Origin: Cupriavidus necator
GTDB taxonomy: Bacteria > Pseudomonadota > Gammaproteobacteria > Burkholderiales > Burkholderiaceae
Assembly: GCF_016127575.1 (NCBI RefSeq)
Contig: NZ_CP066018.1
Location: forward strand, 2,160,001-2,192,000
Length of the DNA: 32,000 bases
Reading direction: 5' to 3'
The notes under the pieces are model-generated. The model worked only from the letters and a program-made list of their open reading frames with translations. It searched no databases and was not told where the DNA came from. Numbering within the stretch: position 1 is the stretch's first letter; each line of letters starts with the position of its first letter. Positions 2,695 to 31,436 of this stretch are shown piece by piece. A program made the translations under genes and the position numbers.

Positions 2695-3690
2695 ATGGTG
2701 AACGTAGACACGAAGCTTTTAGTGATCTTCACCGAACTACTGAGCAAGCGAAATGCCACTTATGTAGCGGAAAAGATGCATATGACCGCACCGGCCGTAT
2801 CGCACTCGCTGGGCAGGCTGCGTGAAATCTTTGACGATCCGCTCTTCATCCGCGTCCCGCATGGCCTGACGCCAACGCCGCGTGCGCTGGAACTGGGCCC
2901 GAAGATCCGCGACATGCTGGACTTGTGGTCGTCGATCAACGAGGGCGATGCCGACAATTTTGATCCGGCCATTGCCACCGGCACGCTGAGCATCGGCTTC
3001 GCTGCTGAACTGGGCGACACGGTATTCAACCGTTTTGTGCTGCGTATCAAGCAGCTGGCGCCGGACCTGCATATCAAGCTGGTCGAATCCCATTCGTGGG
3101 AAACGGACGTCGCCTCGATGCGCGCCAATGAACTTGACCTGGCCTTTTCGCCGTTCCCGACACGCCACCCGGAAATCGTCGAGGAAATGGTGACGTCGCT
3201 GAACCTGTGGGTTTGCGCGCGCAAGAGCCATCCGGTGCTCAAGAACCACTGCTCGCTGGAGCAATACCTGGATTGCGGCCATATCTTCATGGCGCATTCC
3301 GGCGGCTCCGGCCGCCCGGCGCCGTCGCTGATTCCGCTCGACTACGCGCTGCAGCAGCGCGGGCTCAAGCGCAATGCGACGCTGACGGTACATTCATGGC
3401 GTGCCCAGGCCGAACTGGCCTCGCAGACCGACATGATCTTCACCGTCAATGCGCTGACCAAGGACATGGCCTGCGAGACCTATGGCCTGAAGGCCTTCCC
3501 GCTGCCGTCGGAACTGAACACCATGCTCGGCCTGAACATGTTCTGGCACCGCAGCCGCAACACCCATCCGATGCTGGTGTGGGCGCGCAACCTGTTCCGC
3601 CAGGTGGTGGGCGAGTTTGTCGGACTGCCGCCGGCACGCCCGGCACGGGTGGTCACCGAACAGGACCTGCAAGACCTGCAGGCACCCTGA
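2695..3690 (+). CDS. phcA: LysR-type transcriptional regulator, probable PhcA orthologue
   Basis: 331 aa. ATG at 2695 with GAGG at 2684-2687. LysR winged HTH (TYVAEKMHMTAPAVSHSLGRLRE) followed by a LysR substrate-binding-length C-terminus. The N-terminus MVNVDTKLLVIF... matches my recollection of R. solanacearum PhcA, and a phcBSRQ-type operon is in the same window. The LysR call is secure; the PhcA orthology is unverified. Confidence 0.75.
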   Translation: MVNVDTKLLVIFTELLSKRNATYVAEKMHMTAPAVSHSLGRLREIFDDPLFIRVPHGLTPTPRALELGPKIRDMLDLWSSINEGDADNFDPAIATGTLSIGFAAELGDTVFNRFVLRIKQLAPDLHIKLVESHSWETDVASMRANELDLAFSPFPTRHPEIVEEMVTSLNLWVCARKSHPVLKNHCSLEQYLDCGHIFMAHSGGSGRPAPSLIPLDYALQQRGLKRNATLTVHSWRAQAELASQTDMIFTVNALTKDMACETYGLKAFPLPSELNTMLGLNMFWHRSRNTHPMLVWARNLFRQVVGEFVGLPPARPARVVTEQDLQDLQAP

Positions 3691-3783: not shown

Positions 3784-4215
3784 TTATCGTTTGGGTCTGT
3801 GGGGACAGTCTGTTTTGGTGCAATTGCCGTACAGCGACAGTGCATGTTCCTGCAGCGTAAAGCCGCGCTCGCGCGCGATGCTTTGCTGGCGGTGCTCGAT
3901 TTCAGAGTCGAAGAACTCCTCGACGCGGCCGCAGTCGAGGCACACCAGGTGGTCATGGTGCTTGCCTTCGTTGAGTTCGAAAATCGCCTTGCCGGATTCA
4001 AAGTTGTTGCGCGAGAGCAGGCCCGCCTGCTCGAACTGGGTCAGCACGCGGTAGACGGTGGCCAGGCCGATGTCCATATGCTCGTTCAGCAGGATACGGT
4101 AGACGTCTTCCGCGCTCAGGTGCCGCTGCTCACTGGTCTGAAAAATTTCAAGAATCTTCAGCCTGGGCACGGTCGCCTTCAGGCCGATGTTCTTGAGGTC
4201 CGCCGGACTCGGCAT
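3784..4215 (-). CDS. fur: Ferric uptake regulator
   Basis: 143 aa. [14 protein letters not shown]...[18 protein letters not shown]-binding domain. [11 protein letters not shown] metal-site motif. GGGAG RBS upstream of the ATG. Confidence 0.95.
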
Positions 4216-4461: not shown

Positions 4462-5085
4462 ATGCGTTCTATCCGTTCGTCCGCCATGCGCCCGACGCTG
4501 GTTGTCCCCCTGCTGGCCGCGGCCCTGCTGGCCGGCGCCTGCTCAGCCTACGATTCCACCTCGCGCAAGGTAGCCAACGCCATCACGCCGTACCGGATCA
4601 ACATCGTGCAGGGCAATTTCGTCTCGCGCGAGGCCGTATCGCAACTGCGCGAAGGCATGACGCGCGACCAGGTCAAGTTCCTGCTCGGCACGCCGCTGCT
4701 GAATGACGTGTTCCACGCCAACCGCTGGGACTATGTGTTCTCGTTCCGCCGCGGCAATACCCCGGTGGTGCAGCAGCGCCGCTTCACGGTGTTTTTCGAA
4801 GGCGACCGGCTGGTCAAGTTCAGTGGCGATGAACTGCCGTCCGAGTATGAGCTGATTGCCGAGATCGACGGCATGAAAAAGGCGCTGAAGGACCAGACGC
4901 CGGGCAAGATCTCCACCGGCGCGACAGCCGCCGCGGCCGCCCCGGCCGAAGCGCAGACCACGGTGGAGAACTTTGTGCCGCGGCAGGCGCAGCAGCCGGA
5001 GGCGGCACCCGCCCCTGCGGCATCGCCGGCCGCTCCCACCGAGGCAGCGGCGCCGGCCCAGGCCCCCAAACCGGCCGCCAACTGA
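4462..5085 (+). CDS. bamE: Outer membrane protein assembly factor BamE (SmpA/OmlA lipoprotein) with Ala/Pro-rich C-terminal tail
   Basis: In-frame ATG at 4462 gives MRSIRSSAMRPTLVVPLLAAALLAGAC, a lipoprotein signal with a lipobox. The BamE core reads YRINIVQGNFVSREAVSQLREGMTRDQVKFLLGTPLL. The divergent fur-omlA arrangement is the classic one. ORF 4291..5085 adds an implausible N-terminal extension. Confidence 0.85.
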   Translation: MRSIRSSAMRPTLVVPLLAAALLAGACSAYDSTSRKVANAITPYRINIVQGNFVSREAVSQLREGMTRDQVKFLLGTPLLNDVFHANRWDYVFSFRRGNTPVVQQRRFTVFFEGDRLVKFSGDELPSEYELIAEIDGMKKALKDQTPGKISTGATAAAAAPAEAQTTVENFVPRQAQQPEAAPAPAASPAAPTEAAAPAQAPKPAAN

Positions 5086-5994
<909 letters not shown>

Positions 5995-6044
5995 GGCGCC
6001 GCGGGGCGCGCAGGGCCGAAACTGGCCTGCCGCCACGGTTATAA

Positions 6045-8798
<2,754 letters not shown>

Positions 8799-12301: not shown

Positions 12302-12907
12302 ATGAGCAAGCTGGTTGACTATTACCTGACGCCGCAGTCGCCGTACGTCTACCTGGGCCATGCGCGCTTTGCCGCCATCGCCGAGCGCCATGGCGCGCAG
12401 GTGAACCTGAAGCCGTGCGACCTGGGCAAGGTGTTTTCCGTCTCCGGCGGGCTGCCGCTGTCGCAGCGCCCGCCCCAGCGCCAGGCCTACCGCCTGGTGG
12501 AGCTGGCGCGCTGGAGCGACTTCCTGGGCCTGCCGCTGCATCTGCAGCCGACGTTCTTCCCGGTATCGGGCGACGCGGCCAGCAAGCTGATCATCGCGGC
12601 GCAGCTGGCGCACGGCACCGCCCGCGCGATGCAGCTGACCGGCGCCATCGGCGCGGCAGTGTGGGCGCAGCAGCGCAATATCGCCGATGCCGCCACGCTG
12701 GCGCAGATTGCCGACGAGGCCGGCCTGGACGGCGCCAGCCTGCTCAGGGCCAGCGAGGCGCAGTCGGTGCAGGCGGCCTATGCGCAGAACACCCAGGACG
12801 CGATTTCGGCCGGCGTGTTCGGCGCGCCGTGGTACGTCCATGACGGCCAGCCCTTCTGGGGCCAGGACCGGCTGGATTTCCTCGAGCGCGCCCTGGCGGC
12901 GGCTTGA
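12302..12907 (+). CDS. 2-hydroxychromene-2-carboxylate isomerase family (DsbA-like thioredoxin fold) protein
   Basis: 201 aa. YLTPQSPYVYLG N-terminal motif and C-terminal GVFGAPWYVHDGQPFWGQDRLDFLE are typical of the HCCA isomerase/DsbA-like family. Confidence 0.8.
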   Translation: MSKLVDYYLTPQSPYVYLGHARFAAIAERHGAQVNLKPCDLGKVFSVSGGLPLSQRPPQRQAYRLVELARWSDFLGLPLHLQPTFFPVSGDAASKLIIAAQLAHGTARAMQLTGAIGAAVWAQQRNIADAATLAQIADEAGLDGASLLRASEAQSVQAAYAQNTQDAISAGVFGAPWYVHDGQPFWGQDRLDFLERALAAA

Positions 12908-12928
12908 GCTAAGCTTCGGATAGATCCC

Positions 12929-12955
12929 CGTCCGCTACGGCGGACGTTTTTGTTT
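12929..12955 (+). terminator. Intrinsic terminator after the HCCA-isomerase-family gene
   Basis: cgtccgc-tacg-gcggacg stem-loop followed by tttttgttt. Confidence 0.6.
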
Positions 12956-12971
12956 GCAGGAAACCCAACAC

Positions 12972-14225
12972 ATGACCCAAGCCTTCTTTGCCCCTTGCCC
13001 GCGCGGCCTGGAGAGCGCGCTCGCCGAAGAACTGCGCGAGATCGCCGCGATGCCGGGCATGGCCGCGCTGGCGCCGTTCACGGTGCACCAGGAGGTGCCG
13101 GGCGGCGTCAATTTCTCGGGCGAGATGGCCGCCGCCTATGCGGTCAACCTGCATTCGCGCATTGCCAGCCGGGTGCTGATGCGCGTGGCCGCGCGCGGCT
13201 ACCGGCATGAAGACGACATCTATACGCTGGCACGCGGCGTGCGCTGGGAGCAGTGGTTTTCGCCCGATGAATCGCTGCGCGTGGACATCACCTCGCACAA
13301 GTCGCCGCTGCGCAGCCTGAATTTCACCGCGCTGCGGGTCAAGGACGGGGTCTGCGATGCCCTGCGCGAGCGTGTGGGCGTGCGCCCGAGCGTCGATACC
13401 GCCAGCCCGGATGTGCGCATCTATGCCCACCTGACCGAGCGTGACTGCACGCTGTACCTCGACACCACCGGCGAGCCCCTGTTCAAGCGCGGCTGGCGCA
13501 CCGAGAAGGGCGAGGCGCCGCTGAAGGAAAACCTGGCCGCCGGCATCCTGCGCCTGGCGGGCTGGGTGCCGGGCCAGACCTTCCGGCCCTTCTACGACCC
13601 GATGTGCGGCAGCGGCACCTTCCTGATCGAGGCCGCGCAGGTGGCGCTGGGTATCGCGCCGGGCGGCAGCCGCAGCTTTGCCTTCGAATGGCTCAAGGGC
13701 ATGGACACCAAGGCCTGGCAGAAGCTGAAGTCGGACGCGCAGCGCGCCCGCATGCTGGCCTCGGCCGATGAGCTGCAGGTGGTGGGTTCGGACATCTCCA
13801 CCGACATGCTGGCGATCACGCGCGCCAACTGGGAGCGTGCCGGCCTGCCGGGCGAGGCGCGCACCAAGCAGGTGGATGCGCGCTTCGTGCAGCCGCCTTT
13901 TGATGAGCCGGGTTTGCTGTTGATGAATCCCCCGTACGGCGAGCGCATCGCGGTGCGCGGCCAGCGCCGCCTGCCAGAGGAAGCGATGCCGCGCGACGAG
14001 GTGGAGGAGGCCGCCGCCAACCAGTTCGCCAGTGCCTTCGCCACCACGCTCAAGCAGCATTTCGCGGGCTGGCAGGCGTGGGTGTTTACCGGCGACATGG
14101 GCTTCCCGCGCCGGCTGCGGCTCAAGGAGTCGCGCCGCACGCCGCTCTACAACGGCAATATCGAATGCCGGCTGTTCCGCTTCGACATGGTGCGCGGCGC
14201 CAACCGGGCGCCGCAGGCTGACTGA
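12972..14225 (+). CDS. THUMP-domain class I SAM-dependent RNA methyltransferase (RlmL/UPF0020-like)
   Basis: ATG at 12972 gives MTQAFFAPCPRGLESALAEEL. SAM motif I DPMCGSGTFLIEAA and catalytic NPPYGERI motif. N-terminal THUMP-like region. Confidence 0.85.
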   Translation: MTQAFFAPCPRGLESALAEELREIAAMPGMAALAPFTVHQEVPGGVNFSGEMAAAYAVNLHSRIASRVLMRVAARGYRHEDDIYTLARGVRWEQWFSPDESLRVDITSHKSPLRSLNFTALRVKDGVCDALRERVGVRPSVDTASPDVRIYAHLTERDCTLYLDTTGEPLFKRGWRTEKGEAPLKENLAAGILRLAGWVPGQTFRPFYDPMCGSGTFLIEAAQVALGIAPGGSRSFAFEWLKGMDTKAWQKLKSDAQRARMLASADELQVVGSDISTDMLAITRANWERAGLPGEARTKQVDARFVQPPFDEPGLLLMNPPYGERIAVRGQRRLPEEAMPRDEVEEAAANQFASAFATTLKQHFAGWQAWVFTGDMGFPRRLRLKESRRTPLYNGNIECRLFRFDMVRGANRAPQAD

Positions 14226-14243: not shown

Positions 14244-15290
14244 TCAGGGGCGCTTGCGCCCCGTCAGTGCGTCGGGATTGCGGCTGAAGTCCGCCAGGAA
14301 GCCCTGCAGGCTGACCACCGGCTCCTGCAGCAGGTGGCGCGGCAGGTCGAACAGCGCGTAAATGAATTCTTCATTGCCTTCGCAGCGCTCGGCCGGCAGG
14401 CAGTATTGTTCCCAGTCCACGCACGCCGGCGTGTACATGCCGTTGCCGGGCCAGAAGAACGGCACCAGCCGGCCTTCGCGCAGGCCTTCGATCAGTGCCG
14501 CCGGGGCATCGTAGGCCTCGGCCGATTCCACCTGGCTCATCAGCCCGGCGCGGGTCTCGATCACCATCAGCGTGGCGTGGCCCTGCGCGGTCAGCAGCAG
14601 GATGCCGGCCGGGTTGGGGTACAGGTAGTACTCGACAAAGCCATAGCGCGCGATCAGCTGGCGCACGCGCTCGGTGATGGCCGGATCGGACAGGAACGAA
14701 AAGGAATGCCGCGTCAGCAGCTCGCGCAGCGTGCGCGACAGCGTGGCAAAGTACGCCTGCTGCATGGCCTCGATTTCCTGGTCCAGCCGCTCGACCATAT
14801 TGCTTTCATGCTTCTTCACGTAGCGGTCGATCAGCCCGTGGTTGAAGCCCTGCACGGCGATGCTCTCGTCGGCGGTGCCGGTCAGCAGGATGGTCTTGCA
14901 GGGCAGGTCCTGCAGCGCCTGGCAGAATTCCAGCCCGTCCATCTGCGGCATCGAATAGTCGACCACCACCACGCCCGGCTGCAGGAAGCGCTTGAAATCG
15001 TGGATCTGGCGGTAGATGCGGTCGATGTCGAGCTGCACGGTGCGCCGCTCGGTCAGGAAGGTGAGGTCGTCGTGCGTCACGCGCACCGGCAGGAAGCCCG
15101 GGAAGCGGGTGGCATAGGCCTCGCGGATCCATTGCAGCGCTTCACGCGGGTCGGTGAAGGTGATCACCGCGCGCGAGGCATCCATCTGGAACGCCAGGCT
15201 GTCGATGAACGACTTGCTGTCATCGACCAGGACGGTCAGGACCGGGTGATGGAAGACCGACAGGTTCCTGTCGTGCGGGTTGAAGGTCAT
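14244..15290 (-). CDS. Orphan atypical response regulator: receiver domain with an internal insertion plus an approx. 190-aa uncharacterised C-terminal domain (LqsR-like layout)
   Basis: In-frame ATG at 15290 gives MTFNPHDRNLSVFHHPVLTVLVDDSKSF. Receiver landmarks are acidic pair DD (aa 23-24), phospho-acceptor-like D111 in VVVVDYSMPQMDG, T in LLTGTADE and K in RYVKKH. About 45 extra residues sit between the first strand region and the acceptor Asp. The rest has no motif I recognise. The 38 codons upstream (ORF start 15404) have poor third-position GC and overlap the predicted promoter. Confidence 0.7.
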   Translation of the reverse strand: MTFNPHDRNLSVFHHPVLTVLVDDSKSFIDSLAFQMDASRAVITFTDPREALQWIREAYATRFPGFLPVRVTHDDLTFLTERRTVQLDIDRIYRQIHDFKRFLQPGVVVVDYSMPQMDGLEFCQALQDLPCKTILLTGTADESIAVQGFNHGLIDRYVKKHESNMVERLDQEIEAMQQAYFATLSRTLRELLTRHSFSFLSDPAITERVRQLIARYGFVEYYLYPNPAGILLLTAQGHATLMVIETRAGLMSQVESAEAYDAPAALIEGLREGRLVPFFWPGNGMYTPACVDWEQYCLPAERCEGNEEFIYALFDLPRHLLQEPVVSLQGFLADFSRNPDALTGRKRP

Positions 15291-25574: not shown

Positions 25575-25599
25575 AAGGCCGGCAATGCCGGCCTTTTTT
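25575..25599 (+). terminator. Intrinsic terminator after the second yceI gene
   Basis: aaggccggc-aat-gccggcctt followed by a T6 run. Confidence 0.7.
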
Positions 25600-25638: not shown

Positions 25639-25668
25639 TTGTACGACCCCCGACGGGCACAGTACAAT
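25639..25668 (+). promoter_or_regulatory. Candidate sigma70 promoter or operator palindrome upstream of the phcB-like gene
   Basis: TTGTAC (25639-25644), 18-nt spacer, TACAAT (25663-25668). The same bases form the inverted repeat TTGTAC-N17-GTACAA. About 220 nt upstream of the GTG at 25888. Confidence 0.3.
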
Positions 25669-25887
25669 GGCCCGCGGCAATCCCTCCTTGATCGTGGCAT
25701 TGCTACTCCTGCCAAGGCGGGGGCAGCCATGCCCGCAACCGGCTAAAGCGCATCACTATGAGCATTCGCTGCATGTCCCGATACCGGTAGCCACCCCCGC
25801 GACCTCCTCGCCCCTCATGCTGTACCCGGCCGTTCTGCCCTGGCTGTATGGCCCGCAGCGTTTCTCGGTTTTCCCTGGCGCAATACC

Positions 25888-27291
25888 GTGTATTCCAAAA
25901 CGCAAATCGATCCGGTAGTTAGTTTCCGCAACTCGCAGGGCGAGCAGGTGCGGGGCACGATTGTCAATCTCCAGAGAAAGTCCCTGGTGATGGAGATCTA
26001 CAACCCGTATTCGATCGTGCAGGTCAGTGAGGTGCTGAGCGAACTCAGCGTCCGCATGGGCTCGAAGAATGCCTACCTCGGCAAGGCCGTGGTCATGAGC
26101 CTGGTGAACACCGGCCTGACCGCGGTGGTGTCGCTGACGCTGATCGACGAGTGGCTGGAGCTGAGCAACCTGGACAACGAGCCCAAGTCGGTCGCGCGCG
26201 AGTCGCAGCGGTTCGTGCAGGACTGGAATGAGCGCTTCAATATCCGGCCCGACTACCAGATCGTGGTCAATGAAATGCGCGCGTTCCTGTCCGAGGTGTC
26301 GCGCTGGGTGGAGCAGGTCGACATGACCAGCACGCTGCCCAAGGAAGGCGATACGCTGCGCATGGACGTGTTCGAGGAGCTGGCCACCCCGATCGCACTG
26401 AAGATCCGCGAATATTCCGCGCGGCTCGACGGCGAAGCCGCGCACGTGCCGGAAGAAGACACCGTGATGCACCGCACCTTCACGCAGGCGGCGCTGCATC
26501 CCTTGCTGCTGCGCTCACCGTTCGTGTTCCGGACCTATACCAAGCCGCTCGGCTATGCCGGCGACTACGAAATGGTCAACCAGATCCTGTCGGATCCGCG
26601 CCAGGGCCCCAGCACCTACTTCCAGATCGTCAACGCAACCTTCCTGCAGTCGTCCGTGGCCGCTGCCCACCGCAACCGCATCAACCTGCTGGTCGATTTC
26701 CTGGTGCGCATGGCCGAGCAGGCCCGGGCCGCGGGCAAGCCGTTCCGGCTGCTCAACGTGGGCTGTGGCCCGGCGGTCGAGATCAACCGCTTCATTACCG
26801 AATACCCCGAGCCGCACTGGCTGTCGTTCCAGCTGCTCGACTTCAGCCAGGAAACGCTGGACTACGCGCGCGGGCGCATCGAAGAGAGCTGCCGCAAGGC
26901 CAATGCGAAGGTCGAGGTGGAATATGTCCACCACTCGGTGCATGAACTGCTCAAGCGCCGGATCGACCACGATCCGTCGCTGCGCGAGTTCGACGGGGTC
27001 TACTGCGCCGGCCTGTTCGACTACCTGTCCGACCGCGTCTGCGCGCGCCTGCTGAGCTATTTCTCCACGCGCACCCATCCCGAGGGGCGCATCCTGGCCA
27101 CCAACGTCCACGTCGACAACCCGGAACGGTACAGCATGGAACATATGCTGGAGTGGTACCTGATCTACCGCGATGAGGCCGGCATGCAGTCTTTGCTGCC
27201 GGCCAATACGCGCGACGGCCGCACCTACGTCGACCCGACCGGCGTCAACGTGTTTGTGGAAGCGATCGTGACTGATCCGGCCAAGGCCTGA
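25888..27291 (+). CDS. phcB: PhcB-like SAM-dependent methyltransferase (predicted 3-hydroxy fatty acid methyl ester autoinducer synthase) with an extra N-terminal domain
   Basis: 467 aa. C-terminal class I methyltransferase has motif I (RLLNVGCGPAVE), an acidic loop (LLDFSQE) and motif II-like DGVYCAGLFDYLSD. N-terminal approx. 200 aa are non-catalytic. First gene of a four-gene block with phcBSRQ architecture. GTG start with no clear SD, so the start is uncertain. Confidence 0.78.
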   Translation: MYSKTQIDPVVSFRNSQGEQVRGTIVNLQRKSLVMEIYNPYSIVQVSEVLSELSVRMGSKNAYLGKAVVMSLVNTGLTAVVSLTLIDEWLELSNLDNEPKSVARESQRFVQDWNERFNIRPDYQIVVNEMRAFLSEVSRWVEQVDMTSTLPKEGDTLRMDVFEELATPIALKIREYSARLDGEAAHVPEEDTVMHRTFTQAALHPLLLRSPFVFRTYTKPLGYAGDYEMVNQILSDPRQGPSTYFQIVNATFLQSSVAAAHRNRINLLVDFLVRMAEQARAAGKPFRLLNVGCGPAVEINRFITEYPEPHWLSFQLLDFSQETLDYARGRIEESCRKANAKVEVEYVHHSVHELLKRRIDHDPSLREFDGVYCAGLFDYLSDRVCARLLSYFSTRTHPEGRILATNVHVDNPERYSMEHMLEWYLIYRDEAGMQSLLPANTRDGRTYVDPTGVNVFVEAIVTDPAKA

Positions 27292-27296
27292 CCACC

Positions 27297-28637
27297 ATGC
27301 TGAAACGGACTGCGAGCAGGTATTCCCCGTACGAGGCTGACCTGCGCGAGTTTCGCCTGGTCTCGAGCCGGGCCGGCGCGCTGACGGCCATCGTGCTGGT
27401 GATGGCCGGCGTCGGGCTCGACTACGGGATCTATCCCAGCCACCAGCTGCAGTTCTTTGTCGCCCGCCTGGTGGTCTCGGTCCTGATCGGGCTGATCTTC
27501 CTGCTGCTGGCCAACCAGGCCGGCCGGCGCTTCGTGCAGCCGCTCACGCTGGCCTGGCTGCTGCTGCTGCCGCAGATGATGATCACATGGATGATCGCCA
27601 CCACCGACGGCGCCTCGTCCATCTACTATGCCGGGCTGAACCTGGTCATCTTCGCGGTCGGCATCGCCATGCCCATGGGCCTGTGGCAGACCATCGGCTT
27701 TGGCGTGGTCACTTACCTGCTCTACCTCGGCGCCTGCCTGATCCACCCCGATGGCCTGGCGCAGCGCGCGCACTTCACCGTCAATTCGCTGTTCATCATG
27801 TTCTCGATCGTGGCCAGCGCGGTCTACACGTTCATGAACGAGCGCGGCCACTTCCACCTGATACGGCTCAAGGAAGAGCTGGCGCACAAGAACGACGAGC
27901 TTGCCGACATCAACCGCCGGCTGGCCGACATCAAGGGCCAGATGCTGCAGCAGGAGAAGATGGCCGCCATCGGTACGCTGGCGGCGGGGCTGCTGCACGA
28001 GGTGAACAACCCGGTCAACTTCTGCCTGATGGCGATCGAAGTGGCGATGGAAGAGCCACAGGCCAAGGAGAACCCTTCGCTGGAAGAGTGCCTGGTCGAC
28101 GCCAAGCAGGGGATGCAGCGCATCCAGCATATCGTCTCCGACCTCAAGACCTTTGCCTACCGCAAGCCGGGCGCCGAGGTGGAAGGCACGCCGTTCCTGT
28201 TCGAGAAGGCGCTCGATTCGTCGATCCGCCTGACCGCGCATGAGCTGCGCGGGGTCAGCCTCAGCCGCGAACTGCCTGCCGACACCCTGGTGCTGGGCGA
28301 CGAGGCGGCCATCATCGGCGTGCTGATCAACCTGTTCTCGAATGCCGCGCTGGCCATGCGCAAGGCGGGCACGGCCGCGCCCGCGATCCATACCACGGCC
28401 CGCTGGGACAACCACCGCCTGCACGTCATGGTGCGCGACAACGGCCCTGGCATCCCCCAGGAAAACCTGGCGCGCGTGTTCGAGCCGTTCTTCACCACGC
28501 GCGAGGTGGGGCAGGGGCTTGGCCTGGGCCTGTCGATCAGCTACGCGGTGGTGGAACGCCACGGCGGGCAGCTGTATGCCGAGAGCGAACTGGGCCAGTG
28601 GACCGCGTTCAGCTTCGACCTGCCGCGTGCGGAGTAA
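27297..28637 (+). CDS. phcS: PhcS-like polytopic sensor histidine kinase
   Basis: 446 aa. Six predicted TM helices in the first approx. 190 aa with almost no periplasmic loops. H-box LLHEVNNPVNF, N-box NLFSNAALAM, G1 DNGPGI and G2 GQGLGLGLS. Starts 5 nt after the phcB stop. Confidence 0.8.
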   Translation: MLKRTASRYSPYEADLREFRLVSSRAGALTAIVLVMAGVGLDYGIYPSHQLQFFVARLVVSVLIGLIFLLLANQAGRRFVQPLTLAWLLLLPQMMITWMIATTDGASSIYYAGLNLVIFAVGIAMPMGLWQTIGFGVVTYLLYLGACLIHPDGLAQRAHFTVNSLFIMFSIVASAVYTFMNERGHFHLIRLKEELAHKNDELADINRRLADIKGQMLQQEKMAAIGTLAAGLLHEVNNPVNFCLMAIEVAMEEPQAKENPSLEECLVDAKQGMQRIQHIVSDLKTFAYRKPGAEVEGTPFLFEKALDSSIRLTAHELRGVSLSRELPADTLVLGDEAAIIGVLINLFSNAALAMRKAGTAAPAIHTTARWDNHRLHVMVRDNGPGIPQENLARVFEPFFTTREVGQGLGLGLSISYAVVERHGGQLYAESELGQWTAFSFDLPRAE

Positions 28638-28643
28638 CCAGCC

Positions 28644-29789
28644 ATGAGCGAAGCGAAGCAGGCACGGCTTGCCGTCCTCTATGTCGACGACGAGGAGATG
28701 GCGCGCAAGTATTTCGCCCGGGCCGCCGGCAGCGACTATGAGGTGCTGGTGGCAGACAGCGCCGACGAGGCCCTGGCGGTGCTGCGCGCGGACCCCGCCC
28801 GCGTGGCGGTGCTGGTGACCGACTTCCGCATGCCCGGGCGCGACGGCGGCCAGCTGCTGCGCCAGGTGGCGCAGGAATACCCGCAGATCGTGCGCATCCT
28901 GGTCACCGCCTATGCCGACAAGGATGTGCTGCTGGAAACGGTCAACAGCGGCGAAGTCTTCCGCATCCTGGAAAAGCCGCTGAGCGTGGCCGACCTGCGC
29001 GAGGTGCTGGCAGGCGCCGCCGAGCGCCACCGCGAGCGCCACCGCGAGCGCACCCTGCGCCAGCACCGGCTGATGGCGATCGACGAGACCCTGGCCTTCC
29101 TGGCGCATGAGCTGAATACCCCGCTGGCTGCCATCGCCAACTTTGCCCACGGCATCCGCGGACGTGTCGCCGGCGAGTACAGTGCGCAGCGCCAGGCCGA
29201 GATCGGCCAGGCGGCCAGCGCCATGTACGACAACGCCCAGTATTGCCTGGCGGTGCTGTCGTCGTTCCTGCAGTCGGTGCGCAACAGTGCCGGCAGCACG
29301 CCGGCGCGGCCCGATGCCGGCGCCGAGGTCAGCGCCGGCTCGCTGGTCACTTCGCTGCTGGACAGCTACCCGTTCGCAGGCGACCAGCGCAGCTGGGTGC
29401 AGGTGGAGATGCACGGCGATTTCCCGGTGCAGACGCTGCCCAACTGCGTGGCGCTGGTGCTCTCCTCGGTGATGAGCAACGCGCTGCGGGCGCTGGGCAG
29501 TGTCGGCACGCCGGCGTTGCGCTTTGTGGTGGTGGCGCAGCCGCGCCCGGAAATCCGCATCTGCGACAACGGGCCGGGGATTGCGCCGGAAGTGATGGAG
29601 CGGTTGCTGGTCGACCCTGTCACCACCCACGCCAGTGCCGGCGGCAGCGGCCTGGGCATGATTTTCTGCAACCGCGTCATGCAGTCGTTTGGCGGCGGCA
29701 TCCGGATCGAATCCGCATCCGGTGCCGGCACGACGGTGACGCTGGACTTTCCAAGTTTCAAGAGTCGAAAGCATAGGAGTGACCGATGA
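28644..29789 (+). CDS. phcR: PhcR-like hybrid protein: N-terminal receiver domain fused to a histidine-kinase-like core
   Basis: 381 aa. REC landmarks are VDDEE, the acceptor Asp in VLVTDFRMPGRDG, and ILEKPL. The second half has H-box LAHELNTPLAAI, an N-box-like SSVMSNALRAL, G1 CDNGPGI and G2 GGSGLGM. Starts 6 nt after the phcS stop. Confidence 0.8.
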   Translation: MSEAKQARLAVLYVDDEEMARKYFARAAGSDYEVLVADSADEALAVLRADPARVAVLVTDFRMPGRDGGQLLRQVAQEYPQIVRILVTAYADKDVLLETVNSGEVFRILEKPLSVADLREVLAGAAERHRERHRERTLRQHRLMAIDETLAFLAHELNTPLAAIANFAHGIRGRVAGEYSAQRQAEIGQAASAMYDNAQYCLAVLSSFLQSVRNSAGSTPARPDAGAEVSAGSLVTSLLDSYPFAGDQRSWVQVEMHGDFPVQTLPNCVALVLSSVMSNALRALGSVGTPALRFVVVAQPRPEIRICDNGPGIAPEVMERLLVDPVTTHASAGGSGLGMIFCNRVMQSFGGGIRIESASGAGTTVTLDFPSFKSRKHRSDR

Positions 29790-30793
29790 CCGAACCGAAT
29801 GCCACGCAGGCACCACCCCCGGCGATTCTGTTCGTCGATGACGAAGCGACTGCAGTCAAGTATTTCCAGCGTGCCATCGGGGCGCTGGCACCGGTGGCCA
29901 CCGGCGGCTCCGTTGAAGAGGGCAAGGCCTTGCTCGACGCCCACGCAGACAGCCTTGCGGTGCTGGTGTCGGACCAGCGCATGCCGGGCGAGTATGGCAA
30001 CGAACTGCTGCGCTACGCGCGCGAGCGCTACCCGCATATCGTGCGCATCCTGACCACCGCGTATTCGGAGCTCGACCAGACCGTCGAGGCGGTCAACCAG
30101 GGGCAGATCCACCGCTACATCAAGAAGCCGTGGGACATCACCGCGCTGCGCATGGAGCTGAAGCAGGCGCTGGAACTGGCCGGCCTGCGCAAGGAACGCG
30201 ACCAGCTGCTGCGCGAGAAGCTGTCCGTGCTGCAGACCCAGACCGTGGCCTCGCGCATCGGCATGGTGCATGCGCTGTGCGCCAGCCTGATCGGGCCGGG
30301 CCGTTTCCAGCCGGTGGAGACCTACCTCGCGGCGGTCGACCTGGCCGGCGCGGGCAGCGTCGAGCCGGACTGGCAGCGCATGGACTACGCCGACCTGGTG
30401 CGGGCCGAGGCCGAGCGCAGCGGCAGCTTCGGCCATGCCGTCGGCACGCGCCTGGCGGGCCTGCGCAGCGCCAACGCGGGCAAGGGGGCGGCCGATGCCG
30501 TCGCGGTAATCGCCGACGCGCTGGGCAGCGAGGTGGTGCGCCGCGATGGCGATACCGTGGTCTGGACCGCGCCGGCCACGTTGGCCGAGTACCTGGTGCA
30601 GCCGGTGGGCGCGCCGGTGTCTGCCGCGCATGCGGCGTGGCTGGCCAGCCTGCTGTGGCTGGACGAGGCCGGCGGTGCGCTGCAGTTTGCGCGCGATGGC
30701 GACGCCATCCTGTGCCGTGCCGGCCAGCGTACCGAGTTCTTCGCGGCCGACCGGCTGGCGGCGTGGATCGAGCGCTTTGCCGAGCAACGTTGA
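29786..30793 (+). CDS. phcQ: PhcQ-like response regulator: receiver domain plus uncharacterised Ala/Gly-rich C-terminal domain
   Basis: 335 aa. The ATG overlaps the phcR stop (ATGA at 29786-29789), with AGGAG at 29775-29779. REC landmarks are VDDEA, VLVSDQRMPGEYG, ILTTAYS and RYIKKPW. This REC is a paralogue of the PhcR REC. Confidence 0.75.
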   Translation: MTEPNATQAPPPAILFVDDEATAVKYFQRAIGALAPVATGGSVEEGKALLDAHADSLAVLVSDQRMPGEYGNELLRYARERYPHIVRILTTAYSELDQTVEAVNQGQIHRYIKKPWDITALRMELKQALELAGLRKERDQLLREKLSVLQTQTVASRIGMVHALCASLIGPGRFQPVETYLAAVDLAGAGSVEPDWQRMDYADLVRAEAERSGSFGHAVGTRLAGLRSANAGKGAADAVAVIADALGSEVVRRDGDTVVWTAPATLAEYLVQPVGAPVSAAHAAWLASLLWLDEAGGALQFARDGDAILCRAGQRTEFFAADRLAAWIERFAEQR

Positions 30794-30831
30794 CATGGAG
30801 CCGGGCTGTAGCCGGTGAGGTGCAGGCTGAC

Positions 30832-31320
30832 ATGGCAAGCAAGACGATCGGTGCGGCCGCTGCCGTAGCCGCCAGGCGCAGGGGGCGGCCCGCGCGCTCC
30901 GCGCAGAACGTCGATACGCAGCGCGCAGCGATTGTCGAGGCGGCTCGAACCATCCTGGTTTCCGCGGGACTCGAGGCAGCGTCCGCCAGGCGGATCGCGT
31001 TGGCGGCCGGCATCGCCCCGGCGACCCTCTATCTGTATTTCGAGAACATCGAAGTCCTTTACGCCGCGGTGCTGGGCGAGTCCCTGCTCCAGTTGCAGCA
31101 ATACGTGCGCGCGGCCACCGGCGATGTCCCGCCCCCGGCAAAGCCCGCCGGCGACGCAACGCCGGCGCGGGCCCGCGCCGCGGCATCACGCGACATTCGC
31201 CCGAAGGGATCTGGTTCAAGGAGTATGCCGAGCGCTACGGTCTTGCCGCCGCCGTGGAATGGCGCGATTCCGGCCGCCCCATCCCCGAGCCCGAGCCGGG
31301 ACAGGACCGCGAGCCGCTGA
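30832..31320 (+). CDS. TetR-family transcriptional regulator (N-terminal HTH domain clear; 3' part probably frameshifted, see findings)
   Basis: ATG at 30832. GRPARSAQNVDTQRAAIVEAARTILVSAGLEAASARRIALAAGIAPATLYLYFENIEVLY is a typical TetR HTH. After about nt 31200 this frame uses rare codons (gga tct ggt tca agg agt), while another frame becomes GC3-rich and runs to TAA at 31368-31370. Confidence 0.5.
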   Translation: MASKTIGAAAAVAARRRGRPARSAQNVDTQRAAIVEAARTILVSAGLEAASARRIALAAGIAPATLYLYFENIEVLYAAVLGESLLQLQQYVRAATGDVPPPAKPAGDATPARARAAASRDIRPKGSGSRSMPSATVLPPPWNGAIPAAPSPSPSRDRTASR

Positions 31321-31390
31321 TGCCGGCCCCGCCCGCGGGAGCGCGCTCACGCTGGTCAGGCCAGGCATAACACCGGCCGGCCGCGGAAAA

Positions 31391-31419
31391 AAACAAAGGC
31401 GCCCGGGGCGCCTTTGTTT
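31391..31419. terminator. Bidirectional intrinsic terminator between the TetR-family gene and secF
   Basis: aaacaaaggcgcc-cgg-ggcgcctttgttt: 13-bp stem flanked by an A7 run and a T-run. Confidence 0.7.
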
Positions 31420-31436
31420 TCGTGGGCGGCAAGCCG

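Follow-up and report, generated by a model that had tools for sequence, protein, structure and literature searches.

A mosaic synthase-sensor cassette in the quorum-sensing operon phcBSRQ of Cupriavidus necator H16

The closest described counterparts of the locus analyzed here, a phcBSRQ operon at positions 25888-30793 of a 32,000-nucleotide stretch of the Cupriavidus necator chromosome (NCBI RefSeq assembly GCF_016127575.1, contig NZ_CP066018.1, positions 2,160,001-2,192,000 of the forward strand; this whole stretch is called the window below), are the Phc quorum-sensing system known from the Ralstonia solanacearum species complex and its homologs in C. metallidurans CH34 and C. taiwanensis LMG19424. 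In Ralstonia, the sensor kinase PhcS probably passes its phosphate to PhcR and PhcQ, and H230 of PhcS from strain OE1-1 is the autophosphorylated histidine required for signaling (PMC11960443). Most of the signaling is reported to go through PhcQ, with PhcR partly involved. PhcQ binds and stabilizes the LysR-type regulator PhcA, and the C-terminal tail of Ralstonia PhcA contributes to this binding. Across the species complex the PhcB and PhcS trees split by signal type, i.e. 3-OH MAME (3-hydroxymyristic acid methyl ester) or 3-OH PAME (3-hydroxypalmitic acid methyl ester), and not by phylotype; these two genes further display signatures of balancing selection and have been likened to agr in the literature.

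Within Cupriavidus, all five phc genes are reported to be conserved, the phcA gene of CH34 complements Ralstonia, and a 3-OH PAME-like activity was detected in CH34 (Garg et al. 2000). A phcA mutant of C. taiwanensis is less fit in planta (Clerissi et al. 2018), and the Phc system of C. taiwanensis LMG19424 is reported to be functional (Wakimoto et al. 2020, cited in PMC10653808). The phcBSRQ operon of C. necator H16 is itself already known and named in the H16 literature (PhcR is the name given to H16_A3118 in PMC10164946), and lines of this strain evolved in the laboratory gather mutations in phcR as well as in phcA or upstream of it (PMC10164946). A first, sequence-only reading of the window mentioned a functional Phc homolog from R. 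eutropha/C. necator: this is correct for R. eutropha CH34, now C. metallidurans (Garg et al. 2000), and does not extend to H16, where the system is still termed 'putative'. The points added here are the presence of the full circuit in the window, a sharply bounded allelic cassette within the operon and an atypical phcR allele in the reference sequence.

The phcBSRQ operon and its Ralstonia counterpart

The operon comprises four genes:

phcB (H16_A3120, CAJ94195), 25888-27291, + strand: 467 amino acids (aa), GTG start; S-adenosylmethionine (SAM)-dependent methyltransferase, predicted signal synthase.
phcS (H16_A3119, CAJ94194), 27297-28637, + strand: 446 aa; polytopic membrane histidine kinase, predicted signal sensor.
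phcR (H16_A3118, CAJ94193), 28644-29789, + strand: 381 aa; REC-HisKA-HATPase hybrid lacking a DNA-binding domain.
phcQ (H16_A3117, CAJ94192), 29786-30793, + strand: 335 aa; REC followed by a C-terminal domain without a Pfam match.

Every coordinate of the four tightly packed open reading frames (ORFs) proposed by the sequence-only reading holds: phcB and phcS are separated by a 5-nt gap (TGA-ccacc-ATG), phcS and phcR by a 6-nt gap (TAA-ccagcc-ATG) with a Shine-Dalgarno-like GGAG 5' of phcR, and phcR and phcQ overlap by 4 nt (ATGA, 29786-29789), with a Shine-Dalgarno-like AGGAG 5' of phcQ. Third-position GC lies between 0.85 and 0.91 in all four ORFs, which is typical of true genes in this window of 66% GC, and the four proteins are exact matches to CAJ94195-CAJ94192 encoded on chromosome 1 of C. 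necator H16.

For comparison in both directions we used the phc locus of R. pseudosolanacearum as a reference. Within these two loci the best matches run namesake-to-namesake both ways, with identities of 65, 64, 55 and 53% for PhcB, PhcS, PhcR and PhcQ, respectively, over essentially their full length and colinearly (PhcB over aa 1-464). The order of domains is likewise preserved: a class I methyltransferase; HisKA and HATPase_c; REC, HisKA and HATPase_c; and REC with a C-terminal half that escapes Pfam (aa 131-335 of PhcQ match no Pfam family). The domain scan and the 53-65% colinear identity thus bear out the match to phcBSRQ that had been drawn from domain order, and the four genes, their order, strand and domain architectures are the same as in the R. 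solanacearum species complex. Relatives of the 467-aa protein in the databases carry the names PhcB or '3-hydroxypalmitic acid methyl ester biosynthesis protein', placing it with PhcB and not with another methyltransferase family, and the relatives of PhcS and PhcQ are named in the same manner.

At the residue level, the SAM-related motifs LNVGCGPA, DFS and YCAGLFDYL of PhcB are invariant in all 18 family members aligned, amid at least 190 invariant columns. The AlphaFold2 (AF2) model of PhcB shows a β-barrel (aa 10-85), a linker (aa 88-103), a helical domain and a Rossmann-type methyltransferase domain (aa 286-461). Foldseek searches with the model return only generic small-molecule and polyketide synthase methyltransferases, a search of PDB sequences with the PhcB profile finds nothing, and Pfam yields only generic methyltransferase matches, all below the gathering cut-off. 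PhcS contains about six hydrophobic segments within aa 21-180; a precomputed MASE8 annotation exists for exactly the PhcS of H16, and the Pfam run does not report MASE8 for this N-terminus, even at E = 1. Its H234 aligns with H230 of Ralstonia PhcS. Further down the relay, the receiver Asp (VTDFRMPG) and the H-box (FLAHELNTP) of PhcR, as well as the receiver Asp of PhcQ (VSDQRMPG), are conserved.

A scan for PhcB in species-representative genomes recovered at least 600 stretches; 590 of the 600 listed encode PhcB relatives, which derive from Cupriavidus, Paraburkholderia, Ralstonia and Oxalobacteraceae. The four-gene phcBSRQ block is present in nearly all of the 80 loci among the matches listed, and because it recurs in this manner the arrangement is not a chance pattern. 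The region is very probably the phcBSRQ quorum-sensing operon of C. necator H16, orthologous to the Phc system of R. solanacearum. As had been anticipated, it belongs to a known family and is not a new system, given that its genes already bear phc names in the H16 literature.

The mosaic cassette of synthase and sensor

Comparison of the operon with its closest relatives, namely those of Cupriavidus sp. TMH.W2, 'C. necator' SHC 2-3 and EM36, 'C. nantongensis' HB4B5 and C. neocaledonicus, delimits one further feature that spans the junction of the first two genes:

Hypervariable cassette, 26155-27908, + strand: PhcB aa 90-467 plus PhcS aa 1-204.

The flanks of these relatives are 94-98% identical to those of H16 in DNA, and the flanking proteins 93-99%, yet PhcB is only 74% and PhcS only 75-78% identical. 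In a sliding window, DNA identity drops from 92-97% to 61-79% between approximately 26150 and 27950, and then recovers. At the protein level both boundaries are abrupt, falling within a few codons: relative to TMH.W2, PhcB shows a single difference in aa 1-89 and 69% identity in aa 90-467, whereas PhcS shows 58% identity in aa 1-204 and 95.5% in aa 205-446. The left breakpoint coincides with the low-confidence linker (aa 88-103) between the barrel and the catalytic part in the AF2 model of PhcB, and on the right the break falls in the stretch from the last membrane helix of PhcS to its H-box. Nonsynonymous (dN) and synonymous (dS) divergence follow the same partition, with a dN of 0.25-0.35 and a dS of 0.60-0.78 inside the cassette as against 0.005-0.03 and 0.11-0.32 in the flanks. 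The divergence of the cassette thus reaches the level seen between Cupriavidus and Ralstonia (dS ~0.8).

The distribution of the cassette types is discordant with the phylogeny. In a tree of the conserved parts H16 pairs with TMH.W2; in the cassette tree, H16 groups with C. yeoncheonensis, and the two are the deep sister of the remaining Cupriavidus cassettes together with those of the PhcR-containing Paraburkholderia. C. yeoncheonensis is farther from H16 by its flanks, yet has an H16-type cassette (90% and 87% identity in the PhcB and PhcS parts), the dS of which is similar to that of the flanks. Further carriers of the H16-type cassette (95-98%) include C. taiwanensis, C. nantongensis X1 and UYPR2.512; relative to C. 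taiwanensis the PhcB part is 95-96% and the PhcS part 92-93% identical. Conversely, alleles of the common type occur in genomic backgrounds nearly identical to that of H16. The PhcB barrel, the kinase half of PhcS, PhcR and PhcQ, in contrast, follow the species tree. These patterns show that the catalytic part of PhcB and the sensor part of PhcS constitute a single old allelic cassette, which has been exchanged or retained independently of the genomic background. The two systems studied experimentally in the genus share with H16 the same genus-wide locus and synteny, and differ from it in lacking both the extra 12 bp in phcR and the ~640-nt TetR-like insert after phcQ (see below). C. metallidurans CH34, however, carries the other cassette type: its PhcB is only 69% identical to that of H16 in the cassette part, and the published CH34 experiments therefore concern that other type.

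A comparable situation is encountered in Ralstonia. Two strains of R. pseudosolanacearum are 98-100% identical in the flanks, but only 70-88% identical from about aa 100 of PhcB to about aa 225 of PhcS. One of these alleles clusters with O07844, the PhcB of the 3-OH PAME producer AW1, while the other represents the second widespread type in the species complex. As the same boundaries separate these alleles, the Cupriavidus dimorphism is best read as the phenomenon known from Ralstonia, at a greater depth. By analogy with the 3-OH MAME and 3-OH PAME groups, we infer that the two Cupriavidus cassette types may be signal-specificity groups. The overall configuration also recalls the polymorphic loci agrBDCA of staphylococci and comQXPA of Bacillus: in each case variation is concentrated in a hypervariable block that takes in the signal-producing enzyme and the kinase's N-terminal membrane sensor, conservation holds for the kinase domain and the downstream regulators, and the alleles are independent of the strain phylogeny. 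In Cupriavidus, too, the hypervariable block is limited to the synthase and the sensor input. There is, however, no sequence relationship to these systems, and the Phc signal is a fatty acid ester whereas theirs are peptides.

Several side observations concern the evolution of individual parts of the operon. The N-terminal domain of PhcB (aa 1-89, window 25888-26154), predicted with moderate confidence to be a six-stranded β-barrel, is 97-100% identical across all Cupriavidus, whichever cassette type they carry; it has no Pfam, PDB or Foldseek assignment, and mutation of R22, which lies within this domain, was adaptive in evolved Ralstonia (PMC6989110). The degree of conservation is very different in the two receiver domains: relative to the closest relatives the PhcR receiver (window 28644-29018) has 78-82% identity and a dN of 0.10-0.15, the PhcQ receiver (window 29786-30175) 97-98% identity and a dN of 0.007-0.014. 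A phcB-phcS-phcQ arrangement without phcR is found in 12 Paraburkholderia loci (L038-L047, L049 and L051, including P. xenovorans LB400 chromosome 2) and in four loci from Janthinobacterium and a Burkholderiales metagenome-assembled genome (L060, L061, L068 and L077). In the phcR-less group of Paraburkholderia, PhcQ is 78-80% identical to that of H16 and the PhcB/PhcS cassette only 51-64%; by these identities, such loci appear to be another case of mosaic ancestry within the operon. Lastly, in R. pseudosolanacearum CP051171.1 (11424-13846) phcS is interrupted by a DDE_3/HTH (helix-turn-helix) transposase gene (12388-13373), apparently a natural insertion-sequence knockout of the Phc sensor.

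Probable signal relay and the phcR duplication

By homology to Ralstonia, PhcB would methylate a 3-hydroxy fatty acid with SAM to yield a diffusible methyl ester, which would be sensed by the six-helix membrane domain of PhcS and elicit autophosphorylation on H234. The phosphate would then be passed to the receiver domains of PhcR and PhcQ; PhcQ, and in part PhcR, would make the LysR regulator PhcA more abundant or more active, and PhcA would in turn reset a cell-density regulon. Since the H16 cassette is nearly identical to that of C. taiwanensis, in which Phc is reported to function, the question of the H16 signal chemistry becomes narrower; the C. taiwanensis signal may be (R)-3-OH MAME, an identity not stated in the open literature searched. 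Upon this scheme bears a peculiarity of the third gene:

Perfect 12-bp tandem duplication (CACCGCGAGCGC x2), 29028-29051, + strand: encodes ERHR-ERHR in the linker between REC and the kinase part of phcR.

Exact tandem copies of a 12-bp unit are expected by chance 0.04 times. The recurrent 12-bp deletion of phcR, described in seven of 13 evolved isolates (PMC10164946), maps to the duplicated segment, and one public H16-derived assembly (L005) encodes a 377-aa PhcR without the extra four residues. Because the duplication is absent from the other orthologs aligned, the recurrent deletion amounts to a return to the consensus length.

A further-reaching reading joins these observations. The phc locus of Cupriavidus would be a pherotype (signal-type) locus, in which a 1.75-kb cassette comes in two or more ancient types that different species have retained or exchanged; H16 would carry the minority type, and so would make and hear a 3-hydroxy fatty acid methyl ester different from that of its nearest relatives and of CH34; and the 12-bp duplication in its phcR would be a derived state that mis-sets the relay, the recurrent deletion being a reversion to the ancestral functional form. 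Taken jointly, these propositions are tentative, standing somewhat short of an even chance. Several points weigh against the main account, that of an H16 Phc quorum-sensing operon with the relay and specificity groups outlined above. The four extra PhcR residues are absent from 25 of 25 other aligned orthologs from Cupriavidus, Paraburkholderia and Ralstonia, and might impair signaling. Neither of the two Ralstonia types is specifically the nearer one to the H16 cassette (63 vs 64% identity in the PhcB part and 57 vs 52% in the PhcS part), and thus the chain length of the H16 signal cannot be read from the sequence; an assignment to the MAME or the PAME type by similarity to Ralstonia was tried and does not discriminate. 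NCBIfam and Pfam hold no phc-specific curated model for PhcB. For CH34, purification of 3-OH PAME itself did not succeed, and the PhcA phenotypes are unlike those of Ralstonia (Garg et al. 2000), so that signal and regulon are not simply transferable from Ralstonia. In H16 itself the Phc system is termed 'putative' in two papers (one of them PMC10164946), the phc promoter gave only weak expression, and the literature contains no H16 experiment showing methyl ester production or density-dependent expression.

A first alternative, an unlikely one, holds that the locus is a true Phc ortholog that is impaired in the H16 reference, with the duplication mis-setting the relay such that quorum sensing is not normal in wild-type H16. 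The uniqueness of the duplication among the aligned orthologs, its precise loss in seven of 13 evolved isolates beside two mutations in or upstream of phcA (PMC10164946), the existence of at least one public H16-derived assembly with the 377-aa form and the weak expression from the phc promoter are all in line with this. Nevertheless, all four ORFs are intact and retain their catalytic residues, and in Ralstonia PhcQ is credited with most of the signaling, PhcR being only partly involved. Moreover, a perfect tandem repeat is a slippage hotspot, and its recurrent loss is by itself no proof of selection: slippage alone could explain it, and the reconstructed 12-bp deletion did not significantly change the growth rate (PMC10164946).

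A second alternative accounts for the divergent segment of PhcB and PhcS by fast positive selection in place, as has been proposed for the C. taiwanensis branch, in lieu of the exchange of an old allele, and would require no change of signal. It draws on the excess diversity in phcBQRS on that branch and on the positive selection detected on phcB and phcS (Clerissi et al. 2018), as well as on a dN/dS of 0.4-0.5 inside the cassette as against ~0.1 in the flanks. The synonymous divergence, however, is also elevated three- to five-fold in the cassette, close to the distance between Cupriavidus and Ralstonia; the boundaries are confined to a few codons; and an H16-type cassette resides in C. yeoncheonensis, a member of a different clade by its conserved parts, with a dS comparable to that of its flanks. 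Selection in place is accordingly quite improbable. The same data offer another reading of the published 'excess diversity' of phc on the C. taiwanensis branch, as allele replacement and not as adaptation to symbiosis (the published reading, Clerissi et al. 2018): H16 is not a symbiont, yet it shares the C. taiwanensis-type phc allele. Finally, a generic methyltransferase and two-component cluster unrelated to quorum sensing and resembling phcBSRQ in domain order only, which the generic Pfam domains, the methyltransferase match below the gathering cut-off and the absence of an NCBIfam model for the 467-aa protein might suggest, can be regarded as already refuted by the colinear full-length matches to every one of the Ralstonia Phc proteins (53-65% identity), by the PhcA and PhcX orthologs nearby and by the phc names of these genes in the literature.

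Genomic surroundings and implications of the circuit

The sequence-only reading took phcBSRQ for the only signaling system in the window. This does not hold, as orthologs of two further components of the circuit are present:

phcA, 2695-3690, + strand: LysR-type output regulator with HTH_1 and LysR_substrate domains.
phcX (LqsR family), 14244-15290, - strand: REC domain; 68% identical, across 341 aa, to the product of the gene 5' of phcB in Ralstonia.

PhcA of the window is 78% identical to R. solanacearum PhcA over aa 1-310, and its gene adjoins fur (3784-4215, minus strand), as phcA also does in C. metallidurans and R. solanacearum (Garg et al. 2000). The final 21 residues of the window PhcA cannot be aligned with the longer tail of Ralstonia PhcA, the H16 tail being shorter; the host, unlike Ralstonia, is not a pathogen. 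We also attempted to identify phcA from the mutation coordinates in PMC10164946 and rejected the result, as these positions lie within the ORFs of a flavin reductase and of gapA. With the phcR deletion as the anchor, positions in Table 3 of that paper correspond to approximately 1279-2134 and 4731-6052 of the window, and the entries labeled 'phcA', 'upstream of phcA' and 'H16_A3140' map to the flavin reductase ORF, to gapA and around bamE/dapB. This leaves two explanations: a different coordinate system in the table, or a shift in some of its gene labels. Because the published coordinates miss the LysR gene at 2695-3690, phcA is assigned here by homology.

The Ralstonia arrangement with phcX directly upstream of phcB, which is inessential to the family, is not found in the window: phcX lies ~10.6 kb from phcBSRQ on the opposite strand, and phcA 22 kb from the operon. 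This agrees with PMC10653808, which describes phcX and places the Cupriavidus gene near phc but not adjacent to it. In the R. solanacearum species complex the operon is located between phcX and rlmL, in the order pnt-phcX-phcBSRQ-rlmL(-)...leuS(-), whereas in the window leuS...rlmL runs straight into phcX and pnt, and the operon is located between yceI and secF. The order purB-cytb561-yceI-yceI-phcBSRQ-secF is common to all Cupriavidus loci examined.

Upstream of phcB, three elements can be delineated:

Intrinsic terminator of the upstream yceI, 25575-25599, + strand: 9-bp stem (7 G-C) at 25575-25595 with a 3-nt loop, then TTTTTT.
Candidate promoter/operator, 25639-25668, + strand: TTGTAC-N18-TACAAT, also an inverted repeat TTGTAC/GTACAA; found by alignment.
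Leader of ~220 nt with conserved blocks, 25669-25887, + strand: delimited by genus-wide alignment.

The terminator and leader that had been proposed earlier are both recovered: the hairpin and T run sit just 3' of the yceI stop codon, with 288 nt between them and the GTG of phcB, and align in most other Cupriavidus loci. At its 5' end, the phc transcription unit is bounded by this terminator. The block at 25639-25668 is the most conserved upstream element across 21 Cupriavidus loci (GTTGT ... CACAGTACAATG), and 15 loci contain the exact TTGTAC-N18-TACAAT pattern a single time and at an identical offset. From this conservation it is a putative promoter or operator. A promoter consensus scan of the upstream region reported none, and the block was found through the alignment only; the scan misses it because its -35 element matches at just three of six positions. 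Conservation of the leader extends up to the GTG, including the last ~40 nt before it, which have no clear Shine-Dalgarno sequence, and 1-nt indels between species exclude a coding function of the leader. Rfam searches with the leader and with the whole window gave no match that reached or approached the gathering scores. For 14 Cupriavidus leaders, RNAalifold returned a covariation term of +0.27 with one compensatory pair, and in view of this absence of covariation support a structured leader is unsupported.

Downstream, the ~640-nt segment between phcQ and secF (30794-31436) contains a 162-aa ORF on the + strand (30832-31320) with a TetR_N helix-turn-helix and without the normal TetR C-terminal domain, while another frame near 31210-31370 resembles the C-terminus of a protein. 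This ORF has no match in any other Cupriavidus locus examined, and in C. yeoncheonensis phcQ and secF are ~90 nt apart. The segment has the appearance of an insertion, confined to the H16 lineage, with a decayed regulator gene in it.

C. necator H16 is a main chassis for CO2- and H2-based bioproduction. Because phc genes mutate repeatedly in laboratory evolution, the presence of an intact full circuit (phcA, phcX and phcBSRQ) matters for strain stability and for the design of density-dependent expression; the signal type of H16 and the atypical phcR allele of its reference sequence matter likewise for its use as a chassis. For the family, the sharply bounded cassette extends the pattern known from the R. 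solanacearum species complex to the non-pathogenic Cupriavidus, and offers a tractable system in a non-pathogen for the joint diversification of a fatty acid ester signal and its receptor.

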